NCBI RefSeq assembly: GCF_004010195.1
Contig: NC_057746.1
Coordinates: 28,863,861-28,927,860, forward strand
Length of the DNA: 64,000 nucleotides
Reading direction: 5' to 3'
DNA from: Chiloscyllium plagiosum
Taxonomy: Eukaryota
The position numbers and the translations under genes were made by a program. How positions within the stretch are numbered: the stretch's first letter is position 1; every line of letters begins with the position of its first letter. The notes below the pieces were generated by a model. That model was given only the letters and a program-made list of their open reading frames with translations. It was not told where the DNA came from and searched no databases. Positions 2,439 to 64,000 of this stretch are shown here, piece by piece.

Positions 2439-5400
2439 ACTTCGAAGATTTATCAAAACGAACAGGTAAGAATCAGTTCAGCCATTTCCCATCTTCTGTT
2501 GAAAGTGTTCCCTCGATCTCACAAATATTCATCCTTTGACAATTGGTGAGTCCAGAGGGTCACAGAGCACTCAGTCCAAGACGTGTATCATACAGAGGGT
2601 TCCACAGTATTATGCTTGAAAATGAATGAAGTTTACTGTTGAAAAGCTCTTTGCCTCTGCAGCCAGTGGGACAGTGTGTCCCAGGGAGGCCCCTGCAGCC
2701 AGTGGGACAGTGTGTCCCAGGGAGGCCCCTGCAGCCAATGGGACAGTGTGTCCCAGGGAGGCCCCTGCAGCCAGTGGGACACTGTGTCCCAGAGCTGTAG
2801 CCAGTTTTGTTTGATGCACTCGTAGAACGTGGGAATTGCTGCTGTTGCCTGCATGTTTATTGCCTCCATTCCTATTTGCCCTTGAGAAGGTGGTGGTGAG
2901 CTGGCTTCTTGAACTGCTGCAGCTCATGTGCTGCAGGTAGACCCACAATGTCCTTGGGGATGGAATTCCATAATTTTGTCCCAGCGACATTGAAGGAACA
3001 ATGATATATTTCCAAGTCAGGATAGTGAGTAATTTGGATGGGCGCTTGAAGGTGATGATGCTGTAATGTATCTGCTGCCCTTGTCCTTCTAGATGGAAAA
3101 GGTTGTGAGTTTGGAAGGTGCTATCTGAGGATCTTTGGTGAATTTCTGCAGTGCATATTGTGGATAATATGCAGGGCTGCTACTGAGTGTCAGTAGTAGA
3201 GGGACTGGGTGCTTGTCGATTTATAGCGTTGATCAAACGGGCTGCTTTGTCCTAAATGGTGTGAGCTTCTTGAGTATTGTTCGAGCTGCACTCATCCAGG
3301 CAGGTGGGGAGGATCCATTACACCCCTGACTTGTTTCTCCTAGATGGTGGGCAGACTTTGTGGAGTCAGGAGATGAGTATCCCACTATGGAACTCCTGGG
3401 CTCTGAAACTTCTCTTGTACCCACTGGGTTTATTTGGTGAATCCAGTTGAGTTTCTATTCAATGGTATCCCAAGGACGTTAATAGTGGGAGATTCAGTGA
3501 TGGTAAACCATTGAATTTTCAAGAGGCATTGGTTGTATTATCTCTTATTGGTGATGGTCATTGTCTGTTATATGCATGGTGTGACTCTTACTTCCAACTT
3601 GTCAGTCCAATCCTGGATATTGTCCAGATCCCATTGAAATTGAACATGATCTGTGCTCAGTATCTGAGGAGTCGTGAATGGTACCAAACATCATTCAATC
3701 ACTGGCCACCATCCTCACTTCTGACATTCGGATGGAAAGAAGGTCATTGATGAAGCAGGTAAAGATGGTCGGGCCTAGGACACCATCCTGAGGTACTCCT
3801 ACAGAGGTGTCTTAGATAAGTGGGACGCTGATCCAGGTCTGTAGTTGAGTGACAGGTACCATCTTTCTAGGGTTCAAATCAAAGAGATAATGATCTCTGC
3901 CATTTATAAGTGTAAGAGAACTGTTACAAGTTTTAATTTTATTCCACTAACAAGGTACAAGTCAGATTGGTAGCATACTCCCCACTTGCCTGGATGAATG
4001 CAGCTCCGACAAGAAGCTTGACACCCTCCAGGAAACAGCAGCCCATTTGACTGGCATCACGTCCTTAACTCCCTCCACCCCTGGTGCTCAGTAGCAACAG
4101 TATGTTCTGTAAAATGCACTGCAAAAACCCTCTGAACTGATGGTAACTGCACATTCTTGACATGTCTTTTCTCTTTTCTTTTTCAGAGCAACTTCACAAT
4201 GATGTTGGTGAGTTTTCTAATTCAGGATTTTTCTTGACCACTGAGGTGACTTGTATCCACCTCACTGAGTGGATATTTTCTGTTGGTTTCTGTCTTTTTA
4301 ATTGGGATTACTACATTCCGATCCCAAACCCGGGAACGACCTGTCTTTTAGTGGACGGTAAATGTGTGGGCCACAGAATGCTGCAGTAGTACTGGCACAG
4401 CTCTGAGCCAGATACTGTGTTAGTCCTGGCAGAGATCTGAGTTAAGCCCCAGGCCAAGTCTAGACAGAGATCTGATGGCAATTCAAGGTCAGATCTAGGC
4501 CAAGATCCGATCTAGATCCAAAGTCAGCCTCAATGAAAGATCTCTCTGTCTCTCCCTGGACAATAAGAACCTCTCTTGATCCAGTTTTCTGTCAATTTGT
4601 AAGCTCAAGCATGAAGATTATTTCTCTCCCATCACTAATTAAGTTGCTTTTTTATGTTTTCTCACAGGCAATGCCCGTGCTAATTTAGGTAAGGTACTCT
4701 CAGTCTAATATGAGAGAGATGTTTCGCTGTTTCATTCTCACTGTCTCTGTGGCTGAACCGGAGTACATTTCTCCAACTTAAGCTGCAAGTTAAATATATG
4801 TTGATGTTCTCTCTCTCTGTCTTTCTTGGAATTGGAAAATGAAAGCTGAGAAGATAAACCCATTAACCAAGGAGCCTTCTAAATCAAAGTTGTTAAGATT
4901 TGGAAAGGAGGTTCAATACAGTATACATGGAAAAGATGTCCCCAATGCTGGAGGAAATCATTGAGATAGACCTGATAGGTTGAATGGCCTGTATCTATCA
5001 GTGGACCTGCAGCATTTCTTTACAAACAAAGGAAGTAGGAGTAGGCCAATCGGCCCTTCGAGCCTGCTCTGCCATTCTTTGTTATGATTTGGAGGAGCAG
5101 ATGTTGGGCTGGGGTGGACAAAGTTAAAAATCACGCAACACCAGATTATAGTCTAACAGGTTTATTTGGAGGCACTAGCTTTCAGAGTATTCTTCCTTCA
5201 TCAGGTGGTTGTCCTGATGAAGGAGGAACACTCTGAAAGCTAGTGCTTCCAAGTATACCTGTTGGACTATAACCTGGTGTCGTGTGATTTTAAACATTCT
5301 TTATGTTGATAATGGTTGAACATCCAGCTCAGTAGCCTGTTCCCACTTTTTCACAATATCCCCTTAGCCCCAAGTGCTATCTTCAACTCCTTCTTGAAAT

Positions 5401-8400
5401 CATGCAAAGTTTTGGCCTCAGTTGCGCTGTCTGTGTTTGCAAATTCCACTGGCTCATCACTCTCTGGGTGAAGCAATTTCTCCTCATCTCAATTTTAAAT
5501 AGTTTAGCCCACATCTTTCGATCTCCATCAGTAACATCCTTCCAGCAATAACATGGTCTAGTCCTGTTCTGAACTCCAGTGAATATAATCCTAAGTGATT
5601 CAGCCTCTCGTCATGTGTCAGTCTCACAAAGGATCATGATCTCTTCCTCAGACAGTTGTGGAAGCAGAGTAATTGAATACTATGATTGTCATGATGTGGA
5701 GGTGCTAGTGATGGACTGAGGTGGACAAAACCCATAGTCACATGACACCAGGCTATAGTCCAACAGGCTTTATTTGAAATCACAAGCTTTCAGAATGCTG
5801 CTCCTTCACCAGGACTTCACCTGATGAAGGAGCAGCATTTCAAATAAACGTGGCACACTATAATTTGTTGTCATGTGACTTCAGACTTTGAATCCCATGA
5901 AGGCAGAGGTTGCTGGATTCTTGCTGAGAAGGAGGTAATAGGTGATTAGAAAGGGTCGGAGGAAATGTGGATGAATCCATTAGCCATTGAATGCACAGAA
6001 CAGACCCATGGGACTGAGTATCCTGCTCCTTTCCTGAGGCATATATTTGTATGACCTGATGTGTATAGTCCTCATTCTGCTTCTCTCCCACTGCCTCCCT
6101 CTATCCGTCACTGAGTGTCGCACTCTCTCTTTTCCCTCACTATCTCTCTCAATCTCCCTCGCCCTCTCCCTCTCACCCTTCCTCCCTCTGTCTGCCTCTC
6201 TCCCTCTGTGTCTGTTCCCTCATACACTTGCTCTCTTTCTGTCACTCTTACTCTGTTGCTCTCTGTCTCCTTCTGTTTACCGAGGGATTGTGGTGGAGTG
6301 TTATCAGGATCACCTGATCTTGAGGTAACATAGGAATGGATGAGAGTTTCAGCAATGGACGGGCTGAGGCTGGGTGTGGTCAGACAGTGTTTGGAGATGG
6401 GAGTAGGTGTAATTGGCTTTGCTGACTGATGATCTTATTGTGATTGGATATCATGTTGAGCTAATGCTTTATTGATAAAAATATCTTTGCTTCATTACAG
6501 GTCGAGAGAAGGTTCTGTGTCAAACAGGTAAGGTCGAACTGAGCTGGTGTAGCACTGATTAAATCCTCAGTGTTTCTCTATCTCTGACCCCCACAGTGTG
6601 CTCCATCCTGAACCAAATCCCTCCACTTTCACAGAGGGGCTATGTAGAGCGTTATCCCATATTATTGAACATATGATAGAGGCTAGTGTCAGTGGACTGA
6701 ATGGCATCCTTTTACAGTGTAACAGTTTGGTGATGGTGTTGGTTGAAGGTGTAGGGTAGAGCTGGGAGTTATCAGTCTGGCTGTGTGCCTTTGGTGTGTT
6801 ACTCAGCCTCATACCTGCACCAGGAAGGGGACTCCTCAGTCCTCACCCTGACAGCTAAAGTTACTAATCAGAAAAACCCATTGATCCAACAAAGCCCATC
6901 CCTTGAGAAGGACTCAACTGTTTCCCATCAGCAACATCTCTGCTGTGGGAACACTAAAATCCTTCCTCCATTTTAGTAGAAAGGTAATAACTGTTTCAAT
7001 GTTTCCAGAACATTGCGCCCTGCATGATGGAACATAGAATGGTACAGCACTGGAACAGGCCCTTCGGCCCACCATGTCCTTGCCCACCATGATGGCATTC
7101 TAAACTCATCCCACATGCCTCCGTGTGTGTGTGTGTGTATCTGTCTAAATGCCTCTCAAACTTTGCCATCATCTCTGCCTTTAGCACATCCTCTGACAGG
7201 GCAATCCAGGTACCTACCACCTACCATTTTTAAAAAACAATTGCCTTACAAATGTCCTTTAAACATTTCCCCTCTCACCTTAAATCTATGCCTCCTAGTA
7301 TTTGACATTTCCACCCTGGGACTATCCATATTCACCATAATTTTATATACATTTATTAGGTTACCCATCATCCTCTGAAGCTCTCTCGAAAACTATCCGA
7401 GTTTGCCCAACGTCTCCATATAGTTAATGCAATCCAATCCAGGCAACATCCTGATAAACTGCTTTTGCATTCTCTCTAAAGCCTCCACATCTTCCCTATA
7501 GTGTAGTGACCAGAATGTACACAGTACTGCAAATGTGGCCGACCTAAAGCCTTGTACAGCTGCAACATGACTTGCCAGCTTTTGTACTCAATACCCAACT
7601 GATGAAGTTGAAAAATGTGGTGCTGAAAAAACACAGCAGGCCAGGCAGCATCCGAGGAGCGCAGGAGAATCGACGTTTCGGGCATAAGCCCTTCTTCAGG
7701 AAGTGAGGCTGGTGTACCAAGCGGGCTGAGATAAAGGGTAGGGGGGAGGGAACTTGGGGGAGGGGCGCTGGGAATACGATAGGTGGAAGGAGGTGAGGGT
7801 GATAGGCCGGAGAAGGGGTGGGGGCAGAGAGGTAGCTATTGGCCAGTCTTTGGGGCCTTGCTTGTTTCTAAAGAGGATACAATGATTTCTGTCAAGGCCC
7901 AGCAATCTCCTCACTTGCCTCCCCGTGCCCCCCCTCTCCCCCCATGCTCACCCCCCCCTTGTCAAACCCCAGAATAGCAATGCACTCCCCCACTCTCATC
8001 TTAATGTCCATCTCCTTGGTGAATATTAATGGAAAGTACACATTAAGGACATCACCCATTTCCTCTGGCTCCATACAAATTCTCTCCTTTGTCCTTGAGC
8101 AGACCTACCCTTTCCCAAGCTAACCTCTTGCTACTATAAAATGCCTTGGCATTCTCCTGGTTTGTACTTGCCAAGCATACATCATGGCCCCTTCTAGCCC
8201 CCTTAACTTTTTGTTTAAGTTCTTTTCCGCTTCCTTTATACTCCTTGTGGACCTCAAGAGATCCTGATGTTTGTTGAACACATTAAGCTGTGTGGCGAGT
8301 GTTAGTGGTTATTTGCTGCAATAACAAGTCGAGCTGAATTGGTGGGGGTTGTTGAAATTGCCTGATGACCCTTTGACTTTGATTCTCTGTGTTTTCAGCT

Positions 8401-9938
8401 GCCGAGAGGGTCATCACTGCTGCAGGTGAGGAAGGTTTTCCCGTCACTTTGTCGCATTCCTCCCTCATTTCTTGGGAATCTTGTTGGGAGTTCTGATCCC
8501 CTCCTTTCAGGTATAAGATAACCAGAACTCTGCCTGTGCTGCGGGTGTTTAGCTGCGAAGGCCATCCTTTGAGAGTTGCTGCAGTTGGGTGTTTAAGATC
8601 GCACAGCATCATGTAAACAGCAGGAGCATTCCCCAGTCAATCATTCATTGCTTGACCCACTAAAACCTGGCACAGTCTGCTCAGGTACTGATCCAGTTTG
8701 TATACCATTTGTCCCTATCGCCTCAATCTCCGCACATGAACTGAAGAAGGCCATTCTTGATATTTTAAAAAAATGTTGCTTCAATTGTGGCTCCCTCAAT
8801 GACATGTTCCGTGGAAGACTTCCAGATCTCTACTCCCCTTTGTGTGAGAAATTGCTTCCTGATAGACACCTGAACAGCCTTGTTTGGAGTTTGAGATTCT
8901 GTCTCTCTGTATATACCACCCTACACACAAAAAGAGGGAAGTGTTTCACTTTCTCTCCCTCCAATCGAAACCTATAATTATATTAAACATGTCAGTTGGA
9001 ACATTCCTTCATTTTCTACGTCTAAGGTACATAAAATCCGATCGATTTAATCCTGCGCGCCTCGGTTTTATGGTTTCATCTGCTCCAAGGTTACCATGTC
9101 CTCCTTGTGTATTAGTGCCCAGCACAGTGTGGCATACAGGGCTTGATCAAAGCTCAATCCATTCCAACCTCCCTTGAGACCATAGGGAAAAGGCAGAGGA
9201 CTGATCAGGTAACTTTATAAAAAAGCTGTCACACTCACAATGAACTGGATGGCCTTCTCCTGCGCTGTGGTTCTTTAAACCCCTTCCCAGTTTCCCACTC
9301 GCATCAGTGATTTCTGGACAAGTTGCCATCAAAAACCTTCTGACCTGTGACCTCCTTTTGTGTTGGCAGTACCTGTGACCTACGACCCAGAGACCGCCAA
9401 CCCCTACCTGATAATCTCCGAGAACCGGCTGACTGTGACATTCAGTGACAGTTGGCAAGAATTTCCAGAAAACCCAAAGAGGTTCATCTCCCGGCTCTTT
9501 GTGATCGCGGAAGAAGGGTACGAGAGCGGGAGTCAATACTGGGAGGTGCTGGTGGGCAACAAGCCAGACTGGGATCTGGGAGTCGCCAAAGAGTCCATCC
9601 CCAGGGAAGAGTGGATCACGCTGAGCCCGGAGAACGGGTACTGGTCCATCGGGAAGCGGGGTGATACCTATGAGGCCAATACAACAAGCCCTGAAACCCT
9701 AGAGTACAAGACTATGGCTCAGAAAATCGGCATCTACCTGAACCGTGAAGAGGGGACAGTTCGTTTCTATGATGCCGACTGCATGGTGCTAATCCATAGC
9801 TTCATGGCGCAATTCACGGAGAAGATCTATCCATTCTTCAGTCCCTGGGGATCCAGGGAGGAGATGACAATCTGCCCCTTTAATTCCTCATTGTCCAGTG
9901 TCAAGCAGGCCTTACTCAAGGACAATCTGCCCCTTTAA
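2439..9938 (+). CDS. Butyrophilin-like gene A, 3' portion (heptad micro-exons 2439-2465, 4187-4207, 4668-4688, 6501-6527, 8399-8425; B30.2 exon 9370-9938); 5' exons lie upstream of the window
   Basis: Each micro-exon has a pyrimidine tract-AG and a GTAAG/GTGAG donor, is 21 or 27 nt and phase 1-1. The spliced frame is open: xFEDLSKRT-EQLHNDV-GNARANL-GREKVLCQT-AAERVITAA-VPVTYDPETANPYL...YWEV...TICPF. Heptad micro-exons followed by B30.2 is the butyrophilin cytoplasmic layout. Confidence 0.8.
2657..2803. repeat. 36-bp minisatellite, about 4 copies, each with an internal palindrome
   Basis: Unit CTGCAGCCAGTGGGACAGTGTGTCCCAGGGAGGCCC starts at 2657, 2693, 2729 and 2765. Confidence 0.9.
2840..3810 (-). 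mobile_element. Decayed non-LTR retrotransposon (LINE, CR1/L2-related) 3' fragment
   Basis: Minus-strand remnant SPPAWMSAARTILKKL; reverse complement of the element at 35690-36345. Confidence 0.65.
5090..5295. mobile_element. Fold-back (inverted) pair of PLE pseudo-LTR fragments
   Basis: About 85-bp arms around GGTTGT; arms contain CCTGATGAAGGAG...GAAAGCTAGTG; flanked by an imperfect CATTCTTT(G)TTATG repeat. Confidence 0.75.
5690..5895. mobile_element. Second fold-back PLE pseudo-LTR fragment
   Basis: GCTGCTCCTTCACCAGG followed by the inverted CCTGATGAAGGAGCAGC; same family as 5090-5295. Confidence 0.65.
7030..7605 (-). mobile_element. CR1-type LINE 3' fragment
   Basis: Minus strand GIEYKSWQVMLQLYKALGRPHLQYCV (CR1 ORF2 C-terminus) and CR1-like 3' tail. 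Confidence 0.75.
7606..7832 (-). mobile_element. PLE pseudo-LTR fragment with hammerhead motif (7668-7702)
   Basis: Reverse complement of the 390-600 region, including CCTGAAGAAGGGCTTATGCCCGAAACGTCGA. Confidence 0.8.
9370..9938 (+). CDS. B30.2 (PRY-SPRY) terminal exon of gene A
   Basis: Motifs YDPETANP, YWEV, WDLGV, PENGYW, KIGIYL, VRFYDA, IYPFFSP; acceptor TTGGCAG at 9363-9369; TAA at 9936-9938. Confidence 0.92.
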
Positions 9939-9973
9939 TTCCTCATTGTCCAGTGTTAAGCAGGCCTTACGCA
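9866..9973 (+). repeat. 55-bp tandem duplication spanning the gene A stop codon
   Basis: GACAATCTGCCCCTTTAATTCCTCATTGTCCAGTGT(C/T)AAGCAGGCCTTAC starts at 9866 and again at 9921. Confidence 0.9.
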
Positions 9974-10100: not shown

Positions 10101-10122
10101 CCTTACGCAAGGGGCCTTGGAC

Positions 10123-14749: not shown

Positions 14750-17700
14750 AAGGTTGAGAGTCTGAAGGGAGATTACAGAGAGTTGGCAGAAATTTAAAAA
14801 GGAGGTCCTCAAGGGTAGTAATATCTGGATTACTCCCAGTGCTACGAGCCAGTGAGGGCAGGAATAGGAGGATAGAGCAGATGAATGCATGGCTGAGGAG
14901 CTTCTATGTATATGATAGAAGGAATCACATTTTTGGATCATTGGAATCTCTTTTGGGGTAGAAGTGACCTGCACAAGAAGGACGGATTGCACCTAAATTG
15001 GAAGGGGACTAACATACTGGCAGGGAAATGTGCTAAAACTGCTTGGGAGAATTTAAACTAGTAAGGTGGGGGTGGTGGGACCCAGGGAGATAGTGAGGAA
15101 AGAGCTCGATCTGAGACGGGTACAGCTGAGAACAGAAGTGAGTCAAACATTCAGCACAGGCAGGGACAAGGTAGGACTAATAAATTAAACTGCATTTATA
15201 TCAATGCAAAGGGCCTAACAGGGAAGGCAGATGAATTCAGGGTATGGTTAGGGACTGGGATATCATTGCAATTACAGAAACATGACTCAGGGATGGGCAG
15301 GACTGGCAGCTTAATGTTCCAGGATACAAATGCTACAGAAAGGAAAGAAAGGGAGGCAAGAGAGGATGGGGAGTGGAATTTTTGATAAGGGATAGCATTA
15401 CAGCTGTGCTGAGGGAGGATATTCCCGGAAATACATCCAGGGAAGTTATTTGGGTGGAACTGAGAAATAAGAAAGGGATAATCACCTTATTGGGATTGTA
15501 TTATAGACCCCCCCCCAATAGTCAGAGGGAAATTGAGAAACAATCTTGTAAGGAGATCTTAGCTATCTGTAAGAATAATAGGGTAGTTATGGTAAGGGAT
15601 TTTAACTTTCCAAACAATGACTGGGACTGCCATAGTGTTAAAGGTTTAGATGGAGAGGAATTTCTTAAGTGTGTAGAAGACAATTTTCTGATTCAGTTTG
15701 TGGATGCACTACTGGAGAAGGTGCAAAACTTGACCTATTCTTGGGAAATAAGGCAGGGCAGGTGACTGAGGTGCCAGTGGGGGGGCATTTTGGGGCCAGC
15801 GACCATAATTCTATTAGTTTTAAAAATCCAGAGAAAGTATATTCCTGTAAGGGTGAAAGGGAAGGCTGGTAGGTATAGGGAATGCTGGATGACTAAAGAA
15901 AGTGAGGGTTTGGTTAAGAAAAAGAAGGAAGCATATGTCAGGTATAGACAGGATAGATCGAGTGAATCCTTAGAAGAGTATAAAGGAAGTAGGAGTATAC
16001 TTAGGAGGGAAATCAGGAGGGCAAAACGGGGACATGAGATAGCTTTGGCAAATAGAATTAAGAAGAATCCAAAGGGTTTTTACAAACATATTAAGGACAA
16101 AAGAGTAATTAGGGAGAGAATAGAGCCCCTCAAAGATCCGCAAGGTGGACTTTGTGTGGAGCCACAGAAAACGGGGGAAAAACTAAATAAATATTTTGCA
16201 TCAGAATTTACCATGGAAAAGGATATGGAAGATATAGACAGTAGGGAAATAGATGGTGACACCTTGCAAAATGTCCAGATTACAGAGGAGGAAGTGTAGG
16301 ATGTCTTGAAACGATTAAAAGTGGATAAATCCCCAGGACCTAATAAGGTGTACCCGAGACCTCTGTGGGAAGCAATTGGATTGCTGGGCCTCTTGCTGAG
16401 ATATTTTTATCATCGATAGTTACAGGTGAGGTGCCGGAAGACTGGAGGTTGGCTAAGGTGGTGGCACTGCGTAAGAAGGGTGGTAAAGAAATGCCAGGGA
16501 ACTGTAGATTGGTGAGCCTGACCTCGGTGGTGGGCAAGTTGTTGGAGGGAATCCTGAGGGACAGGATGCACATGTATTTGGAAAGGCAAGGACTGATTCG
16601 GGATAGAAATCATGTCTTTGTGCATGGGAAATCATGTCTCACAAACTTGATTGAGTTTTTTGAAGAAGCAACAAAGAAGATTGATGAGGGCAGAGCAGTA
16701 GATGTGTTCTATATGGACTTCAGTAAGGCATTCAACAAGGTTCCCCATGGGAGACTGATTAGCAAGGTTAGATCTCATGGAATACAGGGAAAGTTAACCA
16801 TTTGGATATAGAACTGGCTCAAAGGTAGAATATAGAGGGTGGTGGTGGTGGAGGGTTGCTTTTCAGAATGGAGATCTGTGACCAGTGGAATGCCACAAGG
16901 ATCAGTGCTGGGCCCTCTACTTTTTGTCATTTACATAAATGATTTGGATGTGAGCAAAGAGGTACAGTTAGTAAGTTTACAGATGACACCAAAATTGGAG
17001 GTGTAGTGGACAGCGAAGAGGGTTACCTCAGATTGCAACAGGATCTGGACTAGATGGCCCAATGGGTTGAGAAGTGGCAGGTGGAGTTTAATTCAGATAA
17101 ATGCGAGGTGTTGTATTTTGGGAAAGCAAATCTTAGCAGGATTTATACACTTAATGGTAAGGTCCTAGGGAGTGTTGCTGAACAAAGAGACCTTGGAGTG
17201 CAGGTTCATAGCTCCTTGAAAGTGGAGTTGGAGGTAGATAGGATAGTGAAGAAGGTGTTTGGTATGTTTTCCTTTATTGGTCAGAATATTGAGTACAGGA
17301 GTTGGGAGGTCATTTTGCAGCTGTACAGGACATTGGTTAGTCCACTGTTGGAATATTGCGTGCAATTCTGGTCTCCTTCTTATCAGAAAGATGTTGTGAA
17401 ACTTGAAAAGGTTCAGAAAATATTTACAAGGATGTTGCCAGGGTTGGAGGATCTGAGCTACAGGGAGAGGCTGAACAGGGCTGGGCTGTTTTCCCTGTAG
17501 CGTCGGAGACGGAGGGGTGACCTTATAGAGGGGCATGGATAGGATAAATAGACTAAAGTCTTTTCCCTGGGGTCAGGGAGTCCAGAACTAGAAGGCATAG
17601 GTTTAGGGTGAGAGGGGAAAGATATAAAAGAGATCTAAGGGGCAACTTTTTCACGCAGTGAGTGGTAGAGGTATGGAATGAGCTGCTAGAGGATGTGGTG

Positions 17701-17880
17701 GAGGCTGGTACAATTGCAACATTTAAGAGGCATTTGGATGGGTATATGAATAGTGAGGGTTTGGAGGGATATGGGCCGGGTGTTGGCAGGTGGGACTAGA
17801 TTGGGTTGGGATATCTGGTCGGCATGGACGGGTTGGACCGAAGGGTCTGTTTCCATGCTGCACATCTCTATGACTCTATG
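14750..17880 (+). mobile_element. CR1 LINE, near full ORF2 (APE endonuclease + reverse transcriptase), disrupted
   Basis: ORF fragments EVIWVELRNKKG..LLGLYYRPP..DFNFP (endonuclease), GKSCLTNLIEFF..YMDFSKAFNKVPH (RT) and LEYCVQFWSP; ends in a CTCTATGA repeat tail; internal deletion near 15823. Confidence 0.95.
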
Positions 17881-19769
17881 AGCCTATGCACTGTATCCAT
17901 GCCTAACAAAATTTTTGACACTTCTCTCAAATTGCCACGCGACCTCTTATGTTCTTGTGGAAACAATGTATGTTTGTCCAAGCTCTCCTTCAAGCTAATA
18001 GACTCTAATTCAGGCAAAATCATGGTAAAGCTCTTCTGCACCCTCTCCAAATCCTTCCACGTTGTTCTTAGGGTGTATGACTAGAACTGTATACTACCTT
18101 AAGTCTAAAGTTTTAACTGTTGCGACATGATTGCCAACTTTTATACTGAATGTCAAAACTGATGAAGACAGGCAATCTGTATCCTTCTTTAGCACCTTAT
18201 CCACTTGTGTTGTCACTATCAGGGAGCTGTGAACTTATGCTCTGAGATCCTGTATTTCAATGCCTCTCAGTGTCTGGCCATTCACTGTATACTTTCTTCC
18301 TGCAATTGACTCCCAAAATCACATCACCTCACGTTTTTCCGGAGAAAAGGGTGCTGTTTGGTTAGGAAGTGGAACTCAGGTTTTTCCAGCAAGGAATTCA
18401 TCAGGATGAAAATCAGACAGAGCTAAAATTAACGTCGCACCCAGATCCGTATGTGCCTTTAAAAATCAGCTCACATTTAAATAGCGCCTCTGAACTCCAA
18501 CAGAAGGGGACAAACAATAGCAAATGGGGGGTTCAATTCAGAGAGGTGTGGGGTGTTTAGGGAGGGTGAGAAAGGCAGGGGAACACATCACAAAGAGTAG
18601 GATGCTGAAAACTAAAGAAGTGCAGAAGAACAGAAATATAAATCGCTGGAGAAACACTGCAGACCTGGCAGCAGCCGCAGAGAGAAAGCAGAGTTAGTGT
18701 TTCAGATCTTCCTTCTGAACAAAGGAAGCTTGACTTGCATGTCCACATACCTCTGCTGGTAACAGGGCTGGTCCAAAAATTAGATACAAGACAATAAATA
18801 AAGAAAAAAGGACATGAAAGCATGGGAACAGGACCTTCAGCCCACCAAGAATGCACTGACACATGATGCTTTTCCAAGTTAAAACGCAAATATCTCTGTG
18901 TGGTCGGTATCCCTCTTCCTTCTTGCCTGTCTGTTTCTCTCAGTAAAGGGACACTTTATTTGCCATAGCCCAGAGTGTAAAAACTGAGAAATTATTACAG
19001 TACAAACCTCTCCTAAGTCTGCAGAGGGTACTGTGCACAACTTCTGAACTCGTTACAGGAAGGATGGGGTCACACCAGTCAGGGGTATAGAGGAGATTTA
19101 ACAGTATTGTCGGACTGAAGGCATTTAGCAATGGGGTGGGCTTTTTTGATTGAACGGCATGAGGCTAAGGAGATGATTAAGTGAGATAACGGAAGTGGCC
19201 TTGGTAAACATTTTAGACAGACTCTGTAACACACAGGGTAATAACCAACGGCCAGGAATGTCAATTAATGGAAGGATATTAGCGAAGTGTTTAGACCCAG
19301 AGGCCGCGAAACCGGATCAGAACCAGGATCCGGATCTCGGACAGGGGAATGGAGGCAGAAACCCTCCTCATAACGAATTTTTTAATCGATGTTCCTGAGG
19401 CTGCAGATAAAGTTGTGGAAGGTGGGTTCAGACTGGGTGGGTGTTCACCAACTTGAGGGGCCAATCGATCTCTCTCGGTGTCCTGAACTTCCTGTGAGGG
19501 TACACGAGTGTGCAAGACATACAGACAATGTATTTATAAACAAGGTAACATTGGGGGGAATTAGGGGAAGAGAGCGCGTGTGACCTTCCTCTCCTTGAAA
19601 CAGGGAACGATGGAAATTAACCCGAGCGGGATTCCCGAAGAGGCAGGAAGTTGAGCAAACATTTCAATGTTACAATGTTACAGAGGCTGCAGATAAACTG
19701 GTGAAAGCTCAGCTCAAGTTTCTCCGGAGGTTTTGAAGTTAACACCCTCAAAATTTCCGCTCAAAGTCT

Positions 19770-21665: not shown

Positions 21666-21930
21666 CTTCATCTGTCCCTCTGTTCCCTATGTCTGTTTCT
21701 ATCCCTCCCTGCCTCACTATCTCTTCATGTCTGGCTTTATCTCTCTTTATCCCTCCCTCTGTGTTTTCATCACTTTCTGCCCCTGTCTCTCCCCCTATCA
21801 TTCTCTGATCCTCTCTCCCTCTCTCTCTCTCTATCTCCCTCTTTCTCTGTTACAATGATACTATACAGCTATGATAGCCTGAGTGATGACCAATTGGTCT
21901 GATTCTCTCTCTCTCCAATGGGTACTACAG

Positions 21931-22283
21931 AAACAGCGGTGGATTCAGAGGTGACGGGACCATCAGCCCCCGTCATGGGGGGTTGTCGGAGGCAGTGTGG
22001 TCCTGGACTGTGAGTTGGTCATGACCAAAGCCCAGAGAATATGGAAGTCTGCTGGCCTATGGCTATAGCTCACCTATCCATATGTATAAGGAGGGAGCAG
22101 ACGATTTGATTTTCCAGCCCTCGGCCGACAGAGACCGGACTGAACTGTTTCTTAATGAAGTGGCACAGGGGAATCTCTCCCTCAGGCTGAAGGATGTCCG
22201 AGTTTCTGACAGGGGACAGTACAAGTGCTTTGTTGCTTCTGGCATCAAACACAATGAGTTCAAACTCACGCTGGATGTGACAG
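21931..22283 (+). pseudogene. IgV exon of locus B (frameshifted)
   Basis: 353 nt versus 363 nt reconstructed for the paralogue; BTN/MOG/B7-type V-set motifs D-x-G-x-Y-x-C. Confidence 0.9.
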
Positions 22284-49890: not shown

Positions 49891-52218
49891 TCTCAGCAAC
49901 TGCAGACCTCAAATCCTCTGGTACCTTGCCAGTAGCTAGTAAGGATGGAAAATGACCCTCAGAGGGACTTTTGTTTTTATCCATGACTTACTTTTAACAG
50001 CATTGGATGCAATTCATCTGACCTCAGTGATTTACCGACCTTCAGAAATGTTCTGAATATTTCTGCCTCGACCACCCTTCCCAGTCAGAGCGTTCCAGAT
50101 TCCCACCATCCTCCAAGTGAAAATAATTTTCCTCACAATCCATCTAAACATCCTTCCCTTTACCTTAAATTATTGACCATTCCATCAAGGGGAAAATGTT
50201 TCTTCCTGTCAACCATCTCCATGTCCCTCCTAATTTTACACATCTCAATTATGTCTCCCTTCAGTCTCCTCTGCTCCATAGATCACAAACTCAGTCTGTC
50301 CCATCTCTATTATTTGCTAGCTTTGGAAGAGTAACATAGATGCACAAATTAGTGAAAAGTCTATAAATGGAGAGGATAATAATAATAAAATTGGGAAGGC
50401 ATGCATGTAACTGCATGGTAGTCGACATGTTTGTGCCATGTGTACATGTGTGTACATTTCAATACATGGTGTACACGTCAGCATGTGGGCATATATTTTA
50501 GTATATGTGAGTGTATATGTTCATACGTGTTTGTATATTTCAGTATATGTGCATGTGTATGTCAGCATATGTGGGTGTATATGTCAGCACATGTACTGAT
50601 ATATACTCAAATGTTGCTGCTCTCGGTGACCATTAATTGCATTGATGCTGACTCGCATGAATATCTTCTTATTGATGTAGACTCTCTGGTAACATTTTAG
50701 ACAGTTACAACACATCATTCCTTGGCTCTGCCGATGCTGGATTTCTGAATTCCCAGAATATTTCTTCTGCTCCAGGTTCTCATTTGGATCTTTCATGGTA
50801 GGGAAATGAATTTCAAAAATACTAAAAATCAGTACTCACACTAGAGATTTGAATATGTAAACTGGGTTGATTCCCTGGGTACCAAGGGAGCATTGCAACA
50901 TCAGAGGTTTAGTTTGAGTGCATATTGCACAATTGGAAGGTCAGTGTTGACGAGTGCTGCACTGTCATAGGGTCAGTACTGGGGGAATATTTCACTGTCA
51001 TAGTGCCAGTACTGCGGGAATACTTCACTGTCATAAGGTCAGTACTCAGGAGATGCTGCAAAGTTGGAGTTGCCAATACTTGGAGACATTTGAGCCATCA
51101 AACACTGGCCTCATCTGTCCTCTGGTGAATGTAAAGACACTTAAAAAAAGGGTATCCAGCCATATTCCTCATTGTTCTATTTGGTACCTTACAAAGAATA
51201 GTCTGTCTGTTGTGTTTCAGACTAGGCAACATTAAAATATTCTGAGAATGTGACAGGTGAAGTAAGAATGCAAAATAATTTAGTTTTTGTCTGTTTTTCC
51301 TCTCTGTGTTTCTCTATTCTTCACTTCTTTCTATCCCTCTCTCCCACTCACTCGTTGTCCCTCTTTACTGTTCAGAGTATCGAGTGTAGGTAGCTGGTAG
51401 TTTATGTTGCAGCTGTACATTGGTTCGGCCACTTTTGGCATAGTGTGTGAAATTCTGGTCTCCCTCCTGTAGGAAGGATGTTATGAAACTTGGAAGGGTT
51501 CAGAAAAAGTTTACAAGGATGTTGCCAATGTTGTAGGGTTTGAGCTATAGGGAGAGGCTGCAGGCTGGGGTTATTTTCCCTGGCGCATCAGAGGCTGAGG
51601 GGTGACTTTATAAAAGCTTATAAAGTCATGAGAGGCATGCATAGGTTAAATAAACAATATCTTTTCCCTGAGTCGGGGGAGTCCAGAACTCGAGGGCATA
51701 GGTTTAGGGTGAGAGGGTAAAGATTTAAAAGTTACCTGAAGGACAACTATTTCATGCAAAGGGCAGTGCGTTTATGGAATGAGCTGCCAGAGGAAGTGGT
51801 GAGGCTGGTACAATTACAGCATTTAAAAGGCATCTGGATGGGCATATGAATATGAAGGGATTAGAAGGATGTGGGCCAAGTGCTGACAAATGGGATAAGA
51901 TGAATTTAGGATACCTGGTCGGCATGGACAAGTTGGACGAAAGGGTCTGTTTCTGTACTGTACAACTCTATGATTCTCTGAATCTTCGTGTCGCTCTGTT
52001 CCCCATTTCTGTATATATCCGTCCCTGCCCCTCCTATCTGTCACTATCTCTCTCTATCCCTTCCTCTACATCTCCATCTTTCACTGCCCCTGTCTCTCCC
52101 TCGATCATTCTCTGTCCCCCTGCCTCTCCCTCTTTCTCTGTTACAAACATTAATATACAGCTGTAATAGCCTGAGCGATGACCAATCGATCTGATTCTCT
52201 CTCCAGTGACTACTACAG

Positions 52219-52916
52219 AAACAGCGGGAGATTTAGAGGTGACAGGACCATTATCCCACATAATGGGGGTTGTCGGGGGCAGTGTGGTCCTGGAATGTGT
52301 CTTGGTGATGACCAAAGTCCTAAAGAATTTTTTTTAGATTAGATTACATTACAGTGTAGAAACAGGCCCTTCGGCCCAACAAGTCCACACCGACCCGCCG
52401 AAGCGAAACCCACCCATACCCCTACATTTACCCCTTACCTAACACGACGGGCAATTTAGCATGGCCAATTCACCTGACCCAGCACATCTTTTGGACTGTG
52501 GGAGGAAACCGGAGCACCCGGAGGAAACCCACACAGACACGGGGAGAACGTGCAAACTCCACACAGTCAGTCGCCTGAGGCGGGAATTGAACCCGGGTCT
52601 CAGGCGCTGTGAGGCAGCAGTGCTAACCACTGTGCCACCGTGCCGCCCACAAATCCAGCGAATATGGAGGTTCGCTGGATCAACATGGCGTATGGCTATA
52701 TCTCACCTGTCCACTTATACACAGAAGGAGCAGACGCTTTGGCATTCCAGCACTCGGCCTACAGAGGCCGAACTGAACTGTTTCTCGATGAAGTGGCACA
52801 GGGGAATCTCTCTCTCAGACTGAAGGATGTCCGAGTCTCTGACAGGGGACAGTACAAGTGCTTCGTTGCTTCTGGCATCAAACACAATGAGTTCAAATTC
52901 ACACTAGATGTGACAG
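52219..52916 (+). pseudogene. IgV exon of locus C interrupted by SINE
   Basis: ETAGDLEVTGPLSHIMGVVGGSVVLECVLVMTKVLKN [insert] [19 protein letters not shown]...YRGRTELF...DRGQYKC...TLDVT. Confidence 0.9.
52329..52659 (-). mobile_element. Young HE1/V-SINE-like SINE inside the IgV exon
   Basis: Full-length with CpGs retained; tRNA head GGGCGGCACGGTGGCACAGTGG on the minus strand; TCTAA/A-rich tail; GAAT duplicated at 52325-52328 and 52660-52663. Confidence 0.9.
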
Positions 52917-54037: not shown

Positions 54038-57000
54038 ACATAGAGTCATAGAGATGTACAGCATGGAAACAAACACTTCGGTCCAACCCGTCCATGCCAA
54101 CCAGATATCCCAACCCAATCTAGTCCCACCTGCCAGCGCCCAGCCCATATCCCTCCAAACCCTTCCTATTCATATACCCATCCAAATGCCTCTTAAATGT
54201 TGCAATTTTACCAGCCTCCATCACATTCTCTGGCAGCTCATTCCATACACATACCACCCTCTGTCTGAAAAGTTGCCCCTTAGGTCTGTTTTATATCTTC
54301 CCCTCTCACCCTAAACCTATGCCCTCTAGTTCTGGACTCCCCCACCCCAGGGAAAAGTCTTTGCCTATTTACCATTTCCATGCCCTTCATAATTATGTAA
54401 ACCTCTATAAGGACACCCCTCAATCTCTGATGCTCCAGGGAAAATAGCCCCAGCCTGTTCAGCCTCTCCCTATAGCTCAAATCCTCCAACCCTTCTTCAC
54501 TATCCTATCTACCTGTGACTCCACTTTCAATGAGCTATGAACCTGCACTCCAAGGTCTCTTTGTTCAGCAACACTCCCTAGGATCTTACCATTAAGTGCA
54601 TAAGTCCTGCTAAGATTTGCTTTCCCAAAATGCAGCACCTCACATTTATCTGAATTAAACTCCATCTGCCACTTCTCAGCGCATTGGCCCATCTGGTTCA
54701 GATCCTGTTGTAATCTGTGGTAACCCTCTTCGCTGTCCACTACACCTCCAATTTTTGTATCATCTGCAAACTTACTAACTGTACCTCTTATGCTCGCATC
54801 CTAATCATTTAAGTAAATGACAAAAAGTAGAGGACCCAGCACCGATCCTTTGGCATTGCACTGGTCACAGGCCTCCCATCTAAAAACAATCCTCCACCAC
54901 CACCCTCTGTCTTCTACCTTTGAGCCAGTTCTGTATCTAAATTGTGAATTCTCCCTGTATTCTGTGAGATCTAATCTTGCTAATCAGTCTCCCATGGGGA
55001 ACCTTGTCAAACGCCTTACTGAAATCCATATAGATCACATCTACCACTCTGCTGTCATCAATCCTCTTTGTTACTTCTTCAAAAAACTCAATCAAGTTTG
55101 TAAGACATGATTTCTCATGCACAAAGCCATGTTGACTATCCCTAATCAGTCCTTGCCTTTCCAAATACATGTACGTTCTGTCCCTCAGGATTCCTTCCAG
55201 CAACTTGCCCACCACCAACATCAGGATCACTGATGTATAGTTCCCTGGCTTGTCCTTACCACCCTTTTTAAACAGTGGCACCACATTAGCCAACCTAGTC
55301 TTCCGCACCTCACCTGTGATTAGCGATGATACAAATATCTCACTAAGAAGTCCAGGAATCACTTCTCTAGTTTCCCACAGAGTTCAAGGGAACACCTGAT
55401 CAGGACCTGGGGATTTATCCACCTTTACCCATTTCAAGACATCCAGCACATCGTCCTCTGTAATATGGACATTTTGAAAAATGTCACCATCATTTCCCTA
55501 CAGTCTATATCTTCCATATCCTTTTCCACAGTAAATACTGATGCAAACTACTCATTTAGTATCTCCCCCATTTTTTGCAGCTCCACACAAAGTCCACCTT
55601 GGTGATCTTTAGGGCCCCTATTTTCTCCCTTGTTACCCTTTTGTCCTTAATATATTTGTAAAAACTCTTTGGATTCTCCTTAATTCTATTTGCCAAAGCT
55701 ATCTCATGTCCCTGTTTTGCTCTCCTGATTTCCCTCTTAAGTATACTCCTACTTCCTTTATACTCTTCTAAGGATTCATTCATCTATCCTGTCTATACCT
55801 TTCATATGCTTCCTTCTTTTTCTTAACAATTTCTTTAGTCATCCAACATTCTCTATACCGACCAGCCTTTCCTTTCACCCTAACAGGAATATATTTTCTC
55901 TGGATTCTCGTTATCTCATTTCTGAAGGCTTCCCATTTTCCAGCCGTCCCTTTACCTGCGAACATCTGCCCCCAATCAGCTTTCGAAAGTTCTTGCCTAA
56001 TACCGTCAAAATTGGCCTTTCTCCAATTTAGAATTTCAACTTTTAGATCTGGTCTATCCTTTTCCATCACTATTTTAAATCTAATAGAATTGTGGTCTCT
56101 GGCCCCAAAGTGCTCCCCCACTGATATCTCAGTCACCTGTCCTGCCTTATTTCCCAAGAGTAGGTCAAGTTTTGCACCTTCTCTAGTAGGTACATCCACA
56201 TACCGAATATGAAAATTGTCTTGTATGCACTTAACAAATTCTTCGCCATCTAAACCCTTAACACTATCTTTATACTCCTCTAAGGAATCACTCGATCTAT
56301 CTTGTCTTTACCTTACATATGCCTCCTTCTTTTTCTTAACCAAACCCTCAATTTCTTTCGTCATCCAGCACTCCCTACTTTTCCCTACCAACCTTTACTT
56401 TCATCCTAACAGGAATATACTTTCTCTGGATTCTCGTTATCTCATTTCTGAAGGATTCCCATTTTCCAGCCGTCCCTTTACCTGAGAACATCTGCCCCCA
56501 ATCAGCTTTCGAAAGTTCTTGCCTAATACCATCAAAATTGGCCTTTCTCCAATTTAGAACTTCAACTTTTAGATCTGGTCTATCCTTTTTCATCACTATT
56601 TTAAAACTACTAGAATTATGGTCGCTGGCCTCAAAGTGCTCCTCCCACTGACACCTCAGTCACCTGCCCTCCCTTACTTTCCAAGTGTAGGGCAAGTTTT
56701 TGCTCCTTCCTGAGTTGGAACATTCACATACTGAATCAGAAAACTTTCTTGTACACGCTTAACAAATTCCTCTCCTTCTAAACCCTTTGCACTATGGCAG
56801 TCCCAGTGTTTGGAAAGTTTAAATCCCCTATCATAACCACTCTATTATTCCTATAGATAACTGAAATCTCCTTACAAATCTATATCTCAATTTCCCACTA
56901 ACTGTTAGGGGTCCATAATACAATCCCAATAAGGTGATCATCCCTTTCTTATTTCTCAGTTCCACCCGAATAACTTCCCTGGATGCATTCCCAGTAATGT

Positions 57001-57480
57001 CCTCCTTAAGTTCAGCAGTAATGCTATCCCTTATCAAAAATGCCACTCCCCTTCCTCTCTTGCCTCCCTTTCTATCCTTCCTATTGCATTTGTATCCTAG
57101 AACATTAAGCTGCCAGTCTTGTCTATACCTGAGCCATGTTTCAGTAATTGCTATGATATCCCAGTCCCATGTTCCTGACCATGCCCTGAGTTCATCTGCC
57201 TTCCTTGTTAGGCCTCATGCATTGAAGCAAATGTCATTCCATTTAACAGTCGTACCTTGTTCTCTACTTTGTCCCTTCTTGCCCAGTTTGACTTGCTCCC
57301 TTTCCCAACTGCACCAGTCTTAGATTGATCACTTTCCTCACTGTTTCCCTGGGTCCCACCCCCTCATCTTATTAGTTTAAATCCTCCCAAGCAGCTCGAG
57401 TAAAGTATATTAGTTCCCTTCCAATTCAGGTGCAATCTATCCTTCTTGTACAGGTCCCTTCTACCCCAGAAGAGATTCCC
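54038..57480 (-). mobile_element. CR1 LINE (composite, internal about 510-bp duplication) in the IgV-IgC intron of locus C
   Basis: Minus ORFs with endonuclease and RT motifs; absent from the locus B intron (near 23395). Confidence 0.93.
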
Positions 57481-57896: not shown

Positions 57897-57928
<32 letters not shown>

Positions 57929-59810: not shown

Positions 59811-59848
<38 letters not shown>

Positions 59849-61077: not shown

Positions 61078-61362
61078 GTACAGGCCGCCAGCCCAGGATC
61101 GAGATGGAGGGCCAAACAGGTGATGGCATCAGTCTGGGCTGCAGATCCGAAGGGTGGTACCCACAGCCACCCGTCCTGTGGGTAGACGGAGGTGGAGTGA
61201 ATGTGATGGTCCAGCAGCAAACCACGTACCAGCCAGACACTCAGGGGCTGTTCATGGTCAGCAGCTCCATCGAGATCCCCAAGCAATCCCCCAACAAGTA
61301 CACTTGTGTCATTAACAATGTGATCCTGAAGGAGACACAGGAGGCTCACATCCAGATCGCAG
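61078..61362 (+). CDS. IgC exon of locus C (intact)
   Basis: GTGRQPRIEMEGQTGDGISLGCRSEGWYPQPPVLW...GLFMVSSSIEI...YTCVINNVILKETQEAHIQIA; 285 nt, phase 1-1. Confidence 0.88.
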
Positions 61363-62124: not shown

Positions 62125-62244
62125 ATTCCTTCTTCCCCGGTGTTTCCGGATGGCTGACAGCGTTCTGGATCCTGTTTGCTCTGACTGTTGCAGTAGTCAC
62201 TCTCACAGTGTGGTACCATCGGAGATTACAGAATAAGATTCAAG
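62125..62244 (+). CDS. Transmembrane exon of locus C (intact)
   Basis: DSFFPGVSGWLTAFWILFALTVAVVTLTVWYHRRLQNKIQ; 120 nt. Confidence 0.85.
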
Positions 62245-64000
62245 GTGACAAACTGAGCTCAAACTCTGAGAACTTTTTGCAAAAACTAATCATGAACTGA
62301 ATCTAATAATTTGTTAAAAGAAAGTAAAACAGTGCTAGAAATACTCCACAGATCAAGCAGAAGCTGTGGAGAGAGAGGTGGGCACGGAGAACAATGTTAA
62401 TATTTCGGGGAATAAGATTTCATTTTTAGTGAGGTGTGCAATGAACAGTGTAATGAGGAGCCTGTTCATTGCAGTCTGACTCTGATGGCATCTCCCGAGG
62501 TCATGGTGCCCATTAGATTCATTAATTTATTTGATTTTCTTTTCCAGGCCTCAGGAAATCTGAAGGTAAATGATGTTTCTTCAGCCTGTGGGACATGTGC
62601 TGATGTTACACTGACTCTAGCTGTTGAGGAATTTCACACACTCACCCTGACCTTTACTGTTTCTGTCCTGAGAGCAGTCAGACCCCTTCCTGTATGTTGC
62701 TGATCTTACCAGTCACCTGGAGGGTCCATCGGTCTGTTCCTGTTGGTCCTTTCTGTGAGTATACCCTTTCCTTCACACACACCCTCCTGACCAGATTCTC
62801 TATCCCATTCTGACGTTTCCTGTTGTGACAGTGCTGTACCTTTAAGAGAGAGATGTTCTGCACCTGTTTCCTGTTGCAGAGGCATTTCGTCAGAGTGGTC
62901 ACATAATGCCTCCTTCAGATGGGAAGTTGGTAAACTGTGTTTAATTTCTCTCTGGGTATTTGTTTTGAAGAATAATAAGGGAGTGGTGAGATGGCTCACA
63001 CAGACCCAGAAGGGCAATTTTATTTAATGAGATGGTTTCAACAGGTTGCTGAGCTAAAGGCTTGAGTTCTTGGCTGCTAGAGTGAAGTCTTACACAATGA
63101 GTGTTCCTGCTAGACATCAAAAGAGGCAGTTTATTTCTTTGGTCTGGACTGGAAAGAGACTCTCCATAAGAATCAAAACTGTTTTGCTGAATTGATGTCA
63201 AAGAGTGTGCTTTGTGTCTATGTTGGATCATTTGATTAGTGCTTAAATATTGCAATATCTTGTTAAGTATTTCAATAGAGTTAAAGTTATTCCAATTCCT
63301 TTTTAGTTGTATTTTAACTGTGTTATAAGAATAAAGTGTGTTTTGATTAAAGTCCAGTAGTGGGCCAATTGAATCACATCTGTAATACAGTGCCTTGCAC
63401 TAGCTGTAAAATCATTATAAATGTTAGTGTCTCTTTACAATACTTTATGTGGGGTTGAGGTGTACGGTATAGTCCATAGCATTCTCTCCCAACTCTCTCA
63501 ACTTCCTCCCCTGTTTCTTTCCACTCTCCCGTGCTCTCTCCCACTTCTCTCCCTTCCATCTATGCTCTTTCTCCCCCAACTCCCTACTTTTTCTCATGTG
63601 AGTCTCTTCACCTCTCTCATCTTCACACAATGCCCTCTCTCACTCTCTCCCCCTCTTCTCCATGCAACTTTCTTTCAATTTCAATTGTACAGGTCCTCTC
63701 CTCCTTTCTCATCCTCTTGCTCCTTCTCCTCTCCCTCCTCCTTCCTTCTCACCTTCACCTTTCCTCTCTCCCAAACACCCACTCTTCTTCAGTTCCTCCT
63801 CCTTTCTTCCTGTCCTCCTCCTCTTCCCCTCTCTAAACCTTTACCTTTTCAGATTCCTTTTAGAGTCAGGGAGAGTGGATGATGTGATTTGGGTGACACA
63901 CGCTGCTCTGGGGATGGGACAGTGTTCAGTGTGAGGGGAAAAGAGATGCTGCTAATTTAATGTTTTCTTTTGACCAGTTACAGAACATCAAAGGTTGCTG

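Follow-up and report, generated by a model that had tools for sequence, protein, structure and literature searches.

The window, a 64,000-nt stretch of a bamboo shark contig, contains three butyrophilin (BTN) loci on the plus strand, of which A is open and both B and C are broken. They belong to a six-gene butyrophilin run (Z and A to E) on a contig where exons of MHC class I and a large array of TRIM genes are also found. Leader, IgV, IgC and a single transmembrane (TM) segment are encoded by one exon apiece, and a C-terminal B30.2 (PRY-SPRY) domain is present, which is TRIM-derived in B and C and absent from E. Pfam searches of the array found V-set, the BTN-type C2-set_3 (PF22705), PRY and SPRY domains. 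The head-to-tail order of signal, IgV, IgC, TM, repeat and B30.2 which a first-pass annotation had proposed for the three loci was thus recovered from exons and domains. Phase-1 micro-exons of 18–27 nt, all with AG/GT borders (6 in A, 4 in B, 5 in C and 12 in D), would encode a cytoplasmic helical repeat segment, a putative coiled coil. Most of them are 27 nt long and specify nine residues, so that their earlier description as 21-nt heptad exons had to be corrected.

The best single-domain PDB scores of the IgV domains were obtained with BTN1A1, MOG, Skint1 and BTNL2 and those of the IgC domains with BTN2A1, in each case far above PD-L1. The four-domain CD276 came first, with VTCN1 close, when scores were summed over two stretches; the ectodomain tree was built without a B7 outgroup. 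Its deep branches are weak, and orthology of the shark loci with mammalian BTNs is unsupported. Assignment to a tandem BTN array of shark origin, as suspected before, was supported. MHC linkage, for which a synteny check had been suggested, was confirmed: 29 of 50 MHC class I exon matches (hand count) lie on the window's contig and none on other chromosome-scale contigs, the nearest being ∼11.9 Mb away. The same contig harbors 72 of the 99 TRIM RING exons found (hand count). The array comprises butyrophilins of a bamboo shark that are linked to both MHC class I and TRIM exons. A search for MHC class II (PF00969) returned no match and, with controls equally silent, is uninformative on class II linkage. 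BTNs of cartilaginous fish, which in three elasmobranchs sit on the chromosome with MHC class I, as well as lineage-specific BTN duplications are already reported in the available text of Marenco et al. 2026 (PMC12841164), so that the cluster itself, as framed by the first-pass annotation, is not new. Domain-wise trees, pseudogenes and a B30.2 replaced by a TRIM exon are absent from that portion of the paper; such a domain swap probably took place at this locus.

In locus A, five micro-exons for a predicted helical stalk (2439–2465, 4187–4207, 4668–4688, 6501–6527 and 8399–8425, plus strand) have AG/GT borders and an open spliced frame. They are followed by an open B30.2 exon of the old BTN-borne type with PRY and SPRY (9370–9937, plus strand), while leader, IgV, IgC, TM and the first micro-exon are located 4.7–9.9 kb upstream of the window. 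Spliced from IgV to B30.2, A offers 491 open codons, in agreement with the first-pass annotation, which had called its visible exons open. A represents an old lineage that a ray and a catshark also possess: its B30.2 groups with the first B30.2 of Narcine P0005 (100/97 in the B30.2 tree), and its micro-exon region lines up, by eye, with the A-like half of catshark P0008. An origin of A as a recent duplicate of B or C was rejected, as the IgC domains are only ∼39% identical and the introns share no homology. The downstream neighbor D, which is intact, is likewise an old lineage, which recurs in a ray and in several orders of shark. A and D are the likely working genes in this genome.

Locus B retains its start codon in a leader exon (20409–20448, plus strand) that was located by a peptide scan with N-termini of database relatives. 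Its IgV exon (21919–22283, plus strand), delimited by alignment to that of D, is broken by an acceptor change from AG to AA, a +1 shift near 21980, a −1 shift near 22030 and a loss of 10 nt near 22055, and the IgC exon (26500–26784, plus strand) carries an in-frame TAG at 26721–26723. The TM exon (28436–28555, plus strand) is open. It is followed on the same strand by micro-exons at 28829–28855, 32406–32432, 32603–32629 and 32952–32978, whose flanking introns are colinear with those of C and D, and by a decayed copy of another near 31310–31340. The terminal B30.2 exon (34573–35126, plus strand) is open and of TRIM type, standing in the place of what would be the ancestral D-type exon.

In locus C, the leader exon (50758–50797, plus strand) has ATA in place of the ATG seen in B, D and E, and a 335-bp SINE, flanked by a GAAT target-site duplication, splits the IgV exon (52207–52916, plus strand) at ∼52329–52663. 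A 95%-identical copy of this SINE was found 120 kb downstream. The IgC (61078–61362) and TM (62125–62244) exons are open, and micro-exons lie at 62548–62565 and 63978–64004, all on the plus strand, with the second crossing the window end. Past the window, at window-equivalent positions 66751–72015, three further micro-exons and a frameshifted TRIM-type B30.2 complete the locus.

B and C are dead in this genome, and the damage previously noted in both takes the form of the lost acceptor, indels and TAG in B and of the ATA leader, SINE and frameshifted B30.2 in C. A reading of these lesions as assembly errors or private alleles, with one copy functional in the species, could appeal to the fragmented assembly (101,977 contigs), to the clustering of four of B's lesions within 140 bp and to the fact that no independent read spans the lesions. 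It is nevertheless very improbable, as the window is free of N and each copy has three or more unlike lesions spread over several exons, among them the SINE and its target-site duplication. Pseudogenisation of recent copies is supported. The birth-and-death turnover invoked by the first-pass annotation holds for the branch of B, C, D and E but not for A and D as old lineages with counterparts in a ray and other sharks.

B, C and D have IgV, IgC, TM and micro-exons in common, with IgC exon identities of 92–93%, and are colinear through their introns as far as the last micro-exon. The B30.2 exons of B and D share 65% identity in DNA and ∼42% in protein. Those of B and C are 88–96% identical in DNA to local TRIM-type exons, and sequences 82–93% identical in DNA to that of B occur at 39 further places, most of them on the array's contig. 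When 11 copies like B's exon were examined, TRIM exons were found upstream of eight and BTN exons upstream of none, with neither in the remaining three. The best PDB matches are pyrin and TRIM21 for the B30.2 of B and BTN3A1 for those of A and D. B and C are broken members of a carpet-shark subfamily in which the B30.2 exon of a neighboring TRIM gene probably took the place of the original last exon.

Related proteins were sampled thinly, in sets of 20 and 30. Among the 13 database proteins of the first set with a D-like ectodomain, seven carry a D-type B30.2 (from Narcine, Heterodontus, Cetorhinus, Mustelus, Scyliorhinus, Hemiscyllium and Chiloscyllium punctatum), three carry the TRIM type (Stegostoma and two Hemiscyllium) and three have none. 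A fourth chimera is C. punctatum P0161; all of the relatives' chimeras are automatic gene models and predicted to be intact. Among the proteins sampled, a TRIM-type B30.2 on a D-like ectodomain is restricted to carpet sharks. Judged by its carriers (ray, horn shark, basking shark, catshark and smoothhound), the D-type B30.2 is the ancestral state.

Separate trees of ectodomain and B30.2 conflict for B and C, a sign of the swap that the first-pass annotation had overlooked. The ectodomain tree unites B, C and the three chimeras of Stegostoma and Hemiscyllium in a clade (98/96) that falls within the D lineage (100/99). In the B30.2 tree, the same five fall within a carpet-shark TRIM clade (100/97), with the D-type clade apart (100/100), and the terminal exon of B and C is nested (100/97 inside 99/84 and 98/88) among shark A33-like/NF7-like TRIM B30.2 domains. 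The donor TRIM family has RING and B-box. Trees were calculated under LG+G4 with no mixture model, TRIM models with several B30.2 domains were represented by the first only, and the Stegostoma chimera and a Rhincodon TRIM are both long-branched. A single clade for both B30.2 types was rejected by the AU test (p = 0.007, 35/72 rows). A plain birth-and-death array without any swap, in which the B30.2 simply outpaced the ectodomain in divergence, would fit the pseudogenes adjoining intact copies and the lineage-specific duplications in the published text of PMC12841164. It has almost no probability left, because D's B30.2 is more conserved than its ectodomain (96% versus 92% identical to C. punctatum), because B and C are so close to TRIM-type exons in DNA and because common descent failed the AU test; it is refuted unless the trees are artefactual. 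Very probably, the exchange of the terminal exon took place in a duplicate of the old gene D and predates the divergence of the zebra-shark and bamboo-shark lines.

The protein junction of the swap coincides exactly with an exon border. Both kinds of B30.2 are single terminal exons of equal splice phase, so that a new exon would splice in frame; the route would have been ectopic recombination or gene conversion. The short shared intron of 33–72 nt is no peculiarity of B and C, as one ungapped TRIM copy has it too. As proof of a capture breakpoint, the sharp 5′ boundary of TRIM likeness is weakened by a TRIM copy with a like boundary. An origin of B's last intron from a TRIM promoter was rejected, since the only matches of this intron are C and a dispersed repeat of short length. 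No trace of a D-type exon was detected downstream of either B or C. Behind D sits a solo inverted TRIM-type exon, but it is unsupported as a donor by inversion, as it has just 31 nt of upstream intron in common with B and C.

B and C could also be BTNs without B30.2, like E, with the downstream exon an orphan TRIM relic that is joined by gene predictors and unspliced in cells. E indeed has no B30.2 of its own and a TRIM pseudogene comes next (a B30.2 at window-equivalent 188.5 kb was rejected as E's, since it is part of a TRIM starting near 178 kb). The inverted exon behind D has a similar bearing, and a splice from the last micro-exon into the TRIM-type exon was seen in no RNA read. Read coverage of B extended only from IgV as far as the beginning of the B30.2 exon, with 2% of one run sampled and repeats dominating; the sole spliced joint is IgC to TM, matching D at 24 of 25 variants. 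The joint of TM, micro-exons and B30.2 that the first-pass annotation had named as a check was not seen in these reads. However, RING, B-box and coiled-coil TRIM exons are absent between the last micro-exon and the B30.2 in B and C, the exon of B starts 1.6 kb past its last micro-exon and keeps both its acceptor and the matching phase, duplication copied the whole arrangement together, and open-frame models exist in three other species, two with at least four protein accessions. We consider the orphan relic improbable and retain the exon replacement. No RING or B-box motif and no TRIM N-terminal match was found within B or C, which, lacking RING and B-box exons, do not count as class IV TRIM genes.

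The captured exon seems, on balance, to have gone on exchanging sequence with the TRIM array. At fourfold sites, C differs from 4 of 11 TRIM-type copies at 2 of 85–92 positions, and the ectodomains of B and C differ at 12 of 84. The B-C difference in B30.2 versus ectodomain gave p = 0.076, and a comparison with p = 0.004 used a best-matching copy chosen post hoc. A single ancient capture with no later exchange, in which TRIM closeness reflects slow synonymous change, disputes the conversion step only and has a smaller though substantial chance of being right. The AU tests for repeated conversion were non-significant, keeping one clade of all five chimeric B30.2 domains (p = 0.12) as well as a B+C clade (p = 0.13 and 0.16), and the mean TRIM-TRIM fourfold difference is only 5%. 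In contrast, the free tree scatters the five among TRIMs and unites them in 0% of 200 bootstrap trees, C is nearer to three TRIM-type copies (94.3–96.1%) than to B (94.1%), and loop motifs are, by eye, shared in a patchwork. These patterns suggest that gene conversion with the TRIMs may have continued.

The swap would likely alter what the receptor senses inside the cell. In the relatives' intact chimeras, the IgV-IgC ectodomain would keep binding a lymphocyte counter-receptor and the stalk would keep dimerising, while the cytoplasmic domain would bind TRIM-family protein ligands in place of D's ligand; we put this function forward tentatively, as a prediction. At its most speculative, and with rather low probability, carpet sharks would possess a membrane receptor that couples a BTN ectodomain to a diversifying MHC-linked TRIM repertoire; with their B30.2 continually refreshed by conversion, intact copies would sense pathogen proteins from the inside out and pass the signal to lymphocytes. 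On this reading, a second BTN lineage, whose B30.2 is shared with ray TRIMs, suggests that such exchanges recur, and the B30.2 of BTNs would be a module drawn repeatedly from new sources rather than the product of a single ancient fusion.

Chicken BG genes have coiled-coil tails built from 21-nt micro-exons and no IgC or B30.2, whereas the shark loci have IgC and mostly 27-nt micro-exons. The accessible text of PMC4046983 describes them as MHC-linked BTN relatives with dynamic expansion and contraction, features that recall the shark run. For zebrafish, the sections available of 10.1101/027151 and PMC3137616 report that B30.2 domains moved between immune families (NLR-B30.2 and finTRIM) by exon shuffling, were converted across NLR groups and are under positive selection, and that class IV TRIMs are linked to the MHC. 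There a cytosolic recipient gained a B30.2, with conversion among NLRs; in the shark, a membrane BTN replaced an existing B30.2 from adjacent TRIMs. TRIMCyp-type swaps (covered in the excerpt of PMC3137616) also replace a C-terminal binding domain, and engineered SPRY swaps reprogram specificity (PMC13175477, part of the text). Here, in contrast to both, a TRIM provided the domain to a type I membrane receptor. We found no report of a TRIM-replaced B30.2 on a BTN in the literature searched. According to the part of PMC11788884 at hand, BTNs are considered to have arisen by Ig and SPRY domain shuffling in the jawed-vertebrate ancestor; at this locus the step was replayed later within a single order of sharks, and the donor family, the recipient, the exon border and the ancestral state can all still be seen. 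Whole-protein BTN trees and B30.2-based orthology can therefore mislead.

Of three arginines that we take, by their numbering, to belong to the BTN3A1 pocket, D keeps one and A none. In HMMER alignments, D has Val/Pro and A has Arg/Leu at the positions of BTN3A1 His351/Tyr352, and with the assumed arginine numbering the basic phosphoantigen pocket is kept at 1/5 positions in D and 0/5 in A. Judging from these alignments, A and D are without that pocket. Both His351/Tyr352 and the human BTN3A1/BTN2A1 sensor, whose domain order is alike, are described in the available part of PMC10533412. D and the chimeras form a natural pair, similar outside and different inside, for probing what is sensed by shark BTNs and to which receptor they bind. 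The receptor question is worth asking since, as stated in the text at hand of PMC12841164, squamates retain BTNs although they have no gamma-delta T cells; for sharks, PMC11372145 contains a single mention of 'btnl2', in a T-cell subset. A, with its ray and catshark counterparts, and D, with those in a ray and several shark orders, are better candidates for conserved T-cell ligands than the copies that are turning over.

With 70 kb of flanking sequence added upstream and 130 kb downstream, the butyrophilin (BTN) loci A, B and C, confirmed as three loci on the plus strand, fall in a run of BTN-like genes that has six members, Z, A, B, C, D and E (positions are in window numbering, extended beyond its ends). 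The family assignment made in the first-pass annotation also held. Pfam finds V-set, BTN-type C2-set_3, PRY and SPRY domains. The best single-domain PDB matches are BTN1A1, MOG, Skint1, BTNL2 and BTN2A1, and four-domain CD276 is the top match when the score is summed over two stretches. Locus A is indeed open, with 491 open codons when spliced from IgV to B30.2; a 55-bp tandem duplication over its coding end (9866–9970) provides the stop codon. The copies of B and C in the window are dead, in line with the damage noticed initially. Their lesions, known from the assembly sequence alone, comprise in B an AG-to-AA change of the IgV acceptor, IgV indels of +1, −1 and −10, an in-frame TAG within IgC and decay of one of the micro-exons (the short phase-1 exons of the cytoplasmic stalk), and in C a leader without ATG, a 335-bp SINE inside IgV and a B30.2 frameshift. 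Gene D (88363–109465) is intact; its 12 micro-exons are each 27 nt long, and it has 539 open codons from IgV to B30.2. Gene Z (−34750 to −19900), open from IgC to B30.2, is a divergent BTN and weakly supported sister of the A lineage, its nearest relative among the proteins fetched reaching 41% at best. Gene E (130415–162006) lacks a B30.2 of its own and has a short, lysine-rich tail, resembling Stegostoma P0006 in both respects; a TRIM pseudogene follows at 178–189 kb. D and E match a Chiloscyllium plagiosum database model at 99.5–100%, which marks the DNA as that of a bamboo shark. Decayed LINE copies with reverse-transcriptase-like frames, which we take to be of CR1 type, lie in spacers and in the second intron of C (14930–17881, 36804–40042 and 54039–57479; 81–89% alike).

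What is new here is a likely swap of the B30.2 exon, a well-supported reading; the BTN cluster itself is of a known sort. B, C and D can be aligned, introns included, until just beyond the last micro-exon, with 92–93% identity in the IgC exon, whereas the B30.2 of D is only 65% identical to that of B in DNA and about 42% in protein. The B30.2 exon of B matches 39 other places at 82–93%. TRIM exons lie upstream of eight of the 11 copies fetched and BTN exons of none, with three showing neither. The nearest single-domain relatives of the B exon in the protein search are shark RING-B-box-B30.2 proteins (78–88%); in the PDB its domain is nearest to pyrin and TRIM21, and the B30.2 of D to BTN3A1. 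The published titles and abstracts searched, thin on subscription journals, included none that describes the replacement of a BTN B30.2 by an exon from a TRIM gene.

Among the 13 proteins with a D-like ectodomain in a set of 20 database relatives, seven carry a D-type B30.2 (from a ray, horn shark, basking shark, smoothhound, catshark and two carpet sharks), three a TRIM-type B30.2 (Stegostoma and two Hemiscyllium) and three none; a C. punctatum gene model is a fourth chimera. In the ectodomain tree, built from 35 rows, B and C form one clade with the three chimeras (98/96); this clade is nested in a carpet-shark group that also includes D and E (100/98) and itself lies within the D lineage (100/99). 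In the B30.2 tree (72 rows), the same five fall in a carpet-shark TRIM clade (100/97), distant from the D-type clade (100/100), and forcing both B30.2 types together was rejected by the AU test (p-AU 0.007, 35 rows). The protein-level junction of the chimera coincides with an exon border. Taxon spread, tree conflict, AU rejection and junction thus identify, at the level of sequence, the D-type B30.2 as the ancestral state, and the simplest reading would be a single capture preceding the split of zebra shark and bamboo shark.

The foreign exon would splice in frame, since every internal exon is in phase 1 and each of the two B30.2 types consists of one terminal exon whose acceptor is phase 1 as well. 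An adjoining TRIM exon was probably imported by ectopic recombination or conversion; no remnant of the old D-type exon was found at B or C. A decayed solo TRIM-type B30.2 exon lies on the minus strand 3.5 kb behind D (112949–113736). It has only 31 nt of upstream intron in common with the TRIM copies, which suggests that this exon can move alone. B30.2 shuffling and conversion, as outlined for zebrafish NLR-B30.2 and finTRIM genes (10.1101/027151, PMC3137616), provide a precedent for the shark swap, and BTNs themselves are reported to have arisen via Ig-SPRY shuffling (PMC11788884).

Conversion between BTN-borne and TRIM B30.2 exons also likely occurred after the capture. Three TRIM-type copies are closer to the B30.2 exon of C (94.3–96.1% identity) than B is (94.1%), and at fourfold sites the exon of C shows 2 differences in 85–92 sites to four of the 11 TRIM-type copies. 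B and C differ at 12/84 fourfold sites in the ectodomain and 5/87 in B30.2 (Fisher p 0.076); the C–TRIM comparison against the B–C ectodomain gives a post hoc p of 0.004. The five chimeric B30.2 domains are dispersed among TRIMs, being united in 0% of 200 bootstrap trees, and their loop motifs reappear as a patchwork. Two observations count against later conversion: TRIM copies are close to each other, with 5% difference at fourfold sites as compared with 9% at the first two codon positions, and a single clade was not rejected by AU tests (p 0.12, 0.13 and 0.16). The excess at first and second positions among TRIM-type exons is as diversifying selection would give. The upstream intron that B and C have in common with TRIM-type copies is only 33–72 nt long, against 325–889 nt among eight of the 11 copies, but one ungapped TRIM copy has a match as short as that of B and C. 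The C. punctatum chimera P0161 has, by eye, C-like micro-exons and a B-like IgV start (compared with 21948–21977), and there are hints that conversion may have involved BTN paralogues too. A second BTN lineage and ray RING-B-box TRIMs share one B30.2 clade (P0020, P0021, P0141, P0142 and P0144 with P0036 and P0063; 100/99), in which the B30.2 of Heterodontus P0020 shows 70% identity to that of a Pristis TRIM but no more than 57% to those of carpet-shark BTNs in the same lineage as P0020; a second TRIM–BTN exchange, in either direction, is possible.

From family knowledge, the ectodomain would bind a lymphocyte receptor, the stalk would dimerise and the B30.2 would bind a cytosolic ligand. The BTN3A1 pocket residues are kept at 0/5 in A and 1/5 in D, which makes human-style phosphoantigen sensing by these two unlikely. 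D is the best candidate for a conserved function, and its conserved B30.2 is 96% identical to C. punctatum and 57% to Narcine. Engineered SPRY swaps are described as changing specificity (PMC13175477), so that, by analogy, the chimera would bind TRIM-type ligands. In RNA, the IgC-to-TM joint was covered by three reads from data set X7 and by a deep contig from X3; D matched at 24 of its 25 listed variants and C at 13, and the joint is ascribed to the IgC–TM splice of D. Neither a B- or C-specific splice nor a joint of micro-exon to B30.2 was among the RNA matches listed.

Of the 20 database relatives, 16 come from sharks, two from rays and one from coelacanth, most being labelled automatically as butyrophilin-like. 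A, which clusters with catshark and Narcine sequences (99/92), is by sequence comparison an old lineage. Catshark and Narcine gene models fuse an A-like to a D-like part, which suggests that A and D were probably neighbours before B and C arose. BTNs are reported from all jawed vertebrates tested, with lineage-specific duplication and linkage to MHC class I in three elasmobranchs (PMC12841164). The synteny check against the MHC proposed initially found, by hand counts that are lower bounds, 29 of the 50 exon matches to MHC class I on the contig bearing the window, the nearest about 11.9 Mb away. Counted likewise, this contig holds 17 BTN-like IgV exons in four groups (E at most 1e-13), about 97 of the 150 B30.2 exons that were scored and 72 of 99 TRIM RING exons. 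The TRIM array surrounds the BTN run, and three further groups of IgV and IgC exons resembling those of BTNs lie on the same contig at 17.9–18.9, 30.0–30.6 and 33.5–33.9 Mb.
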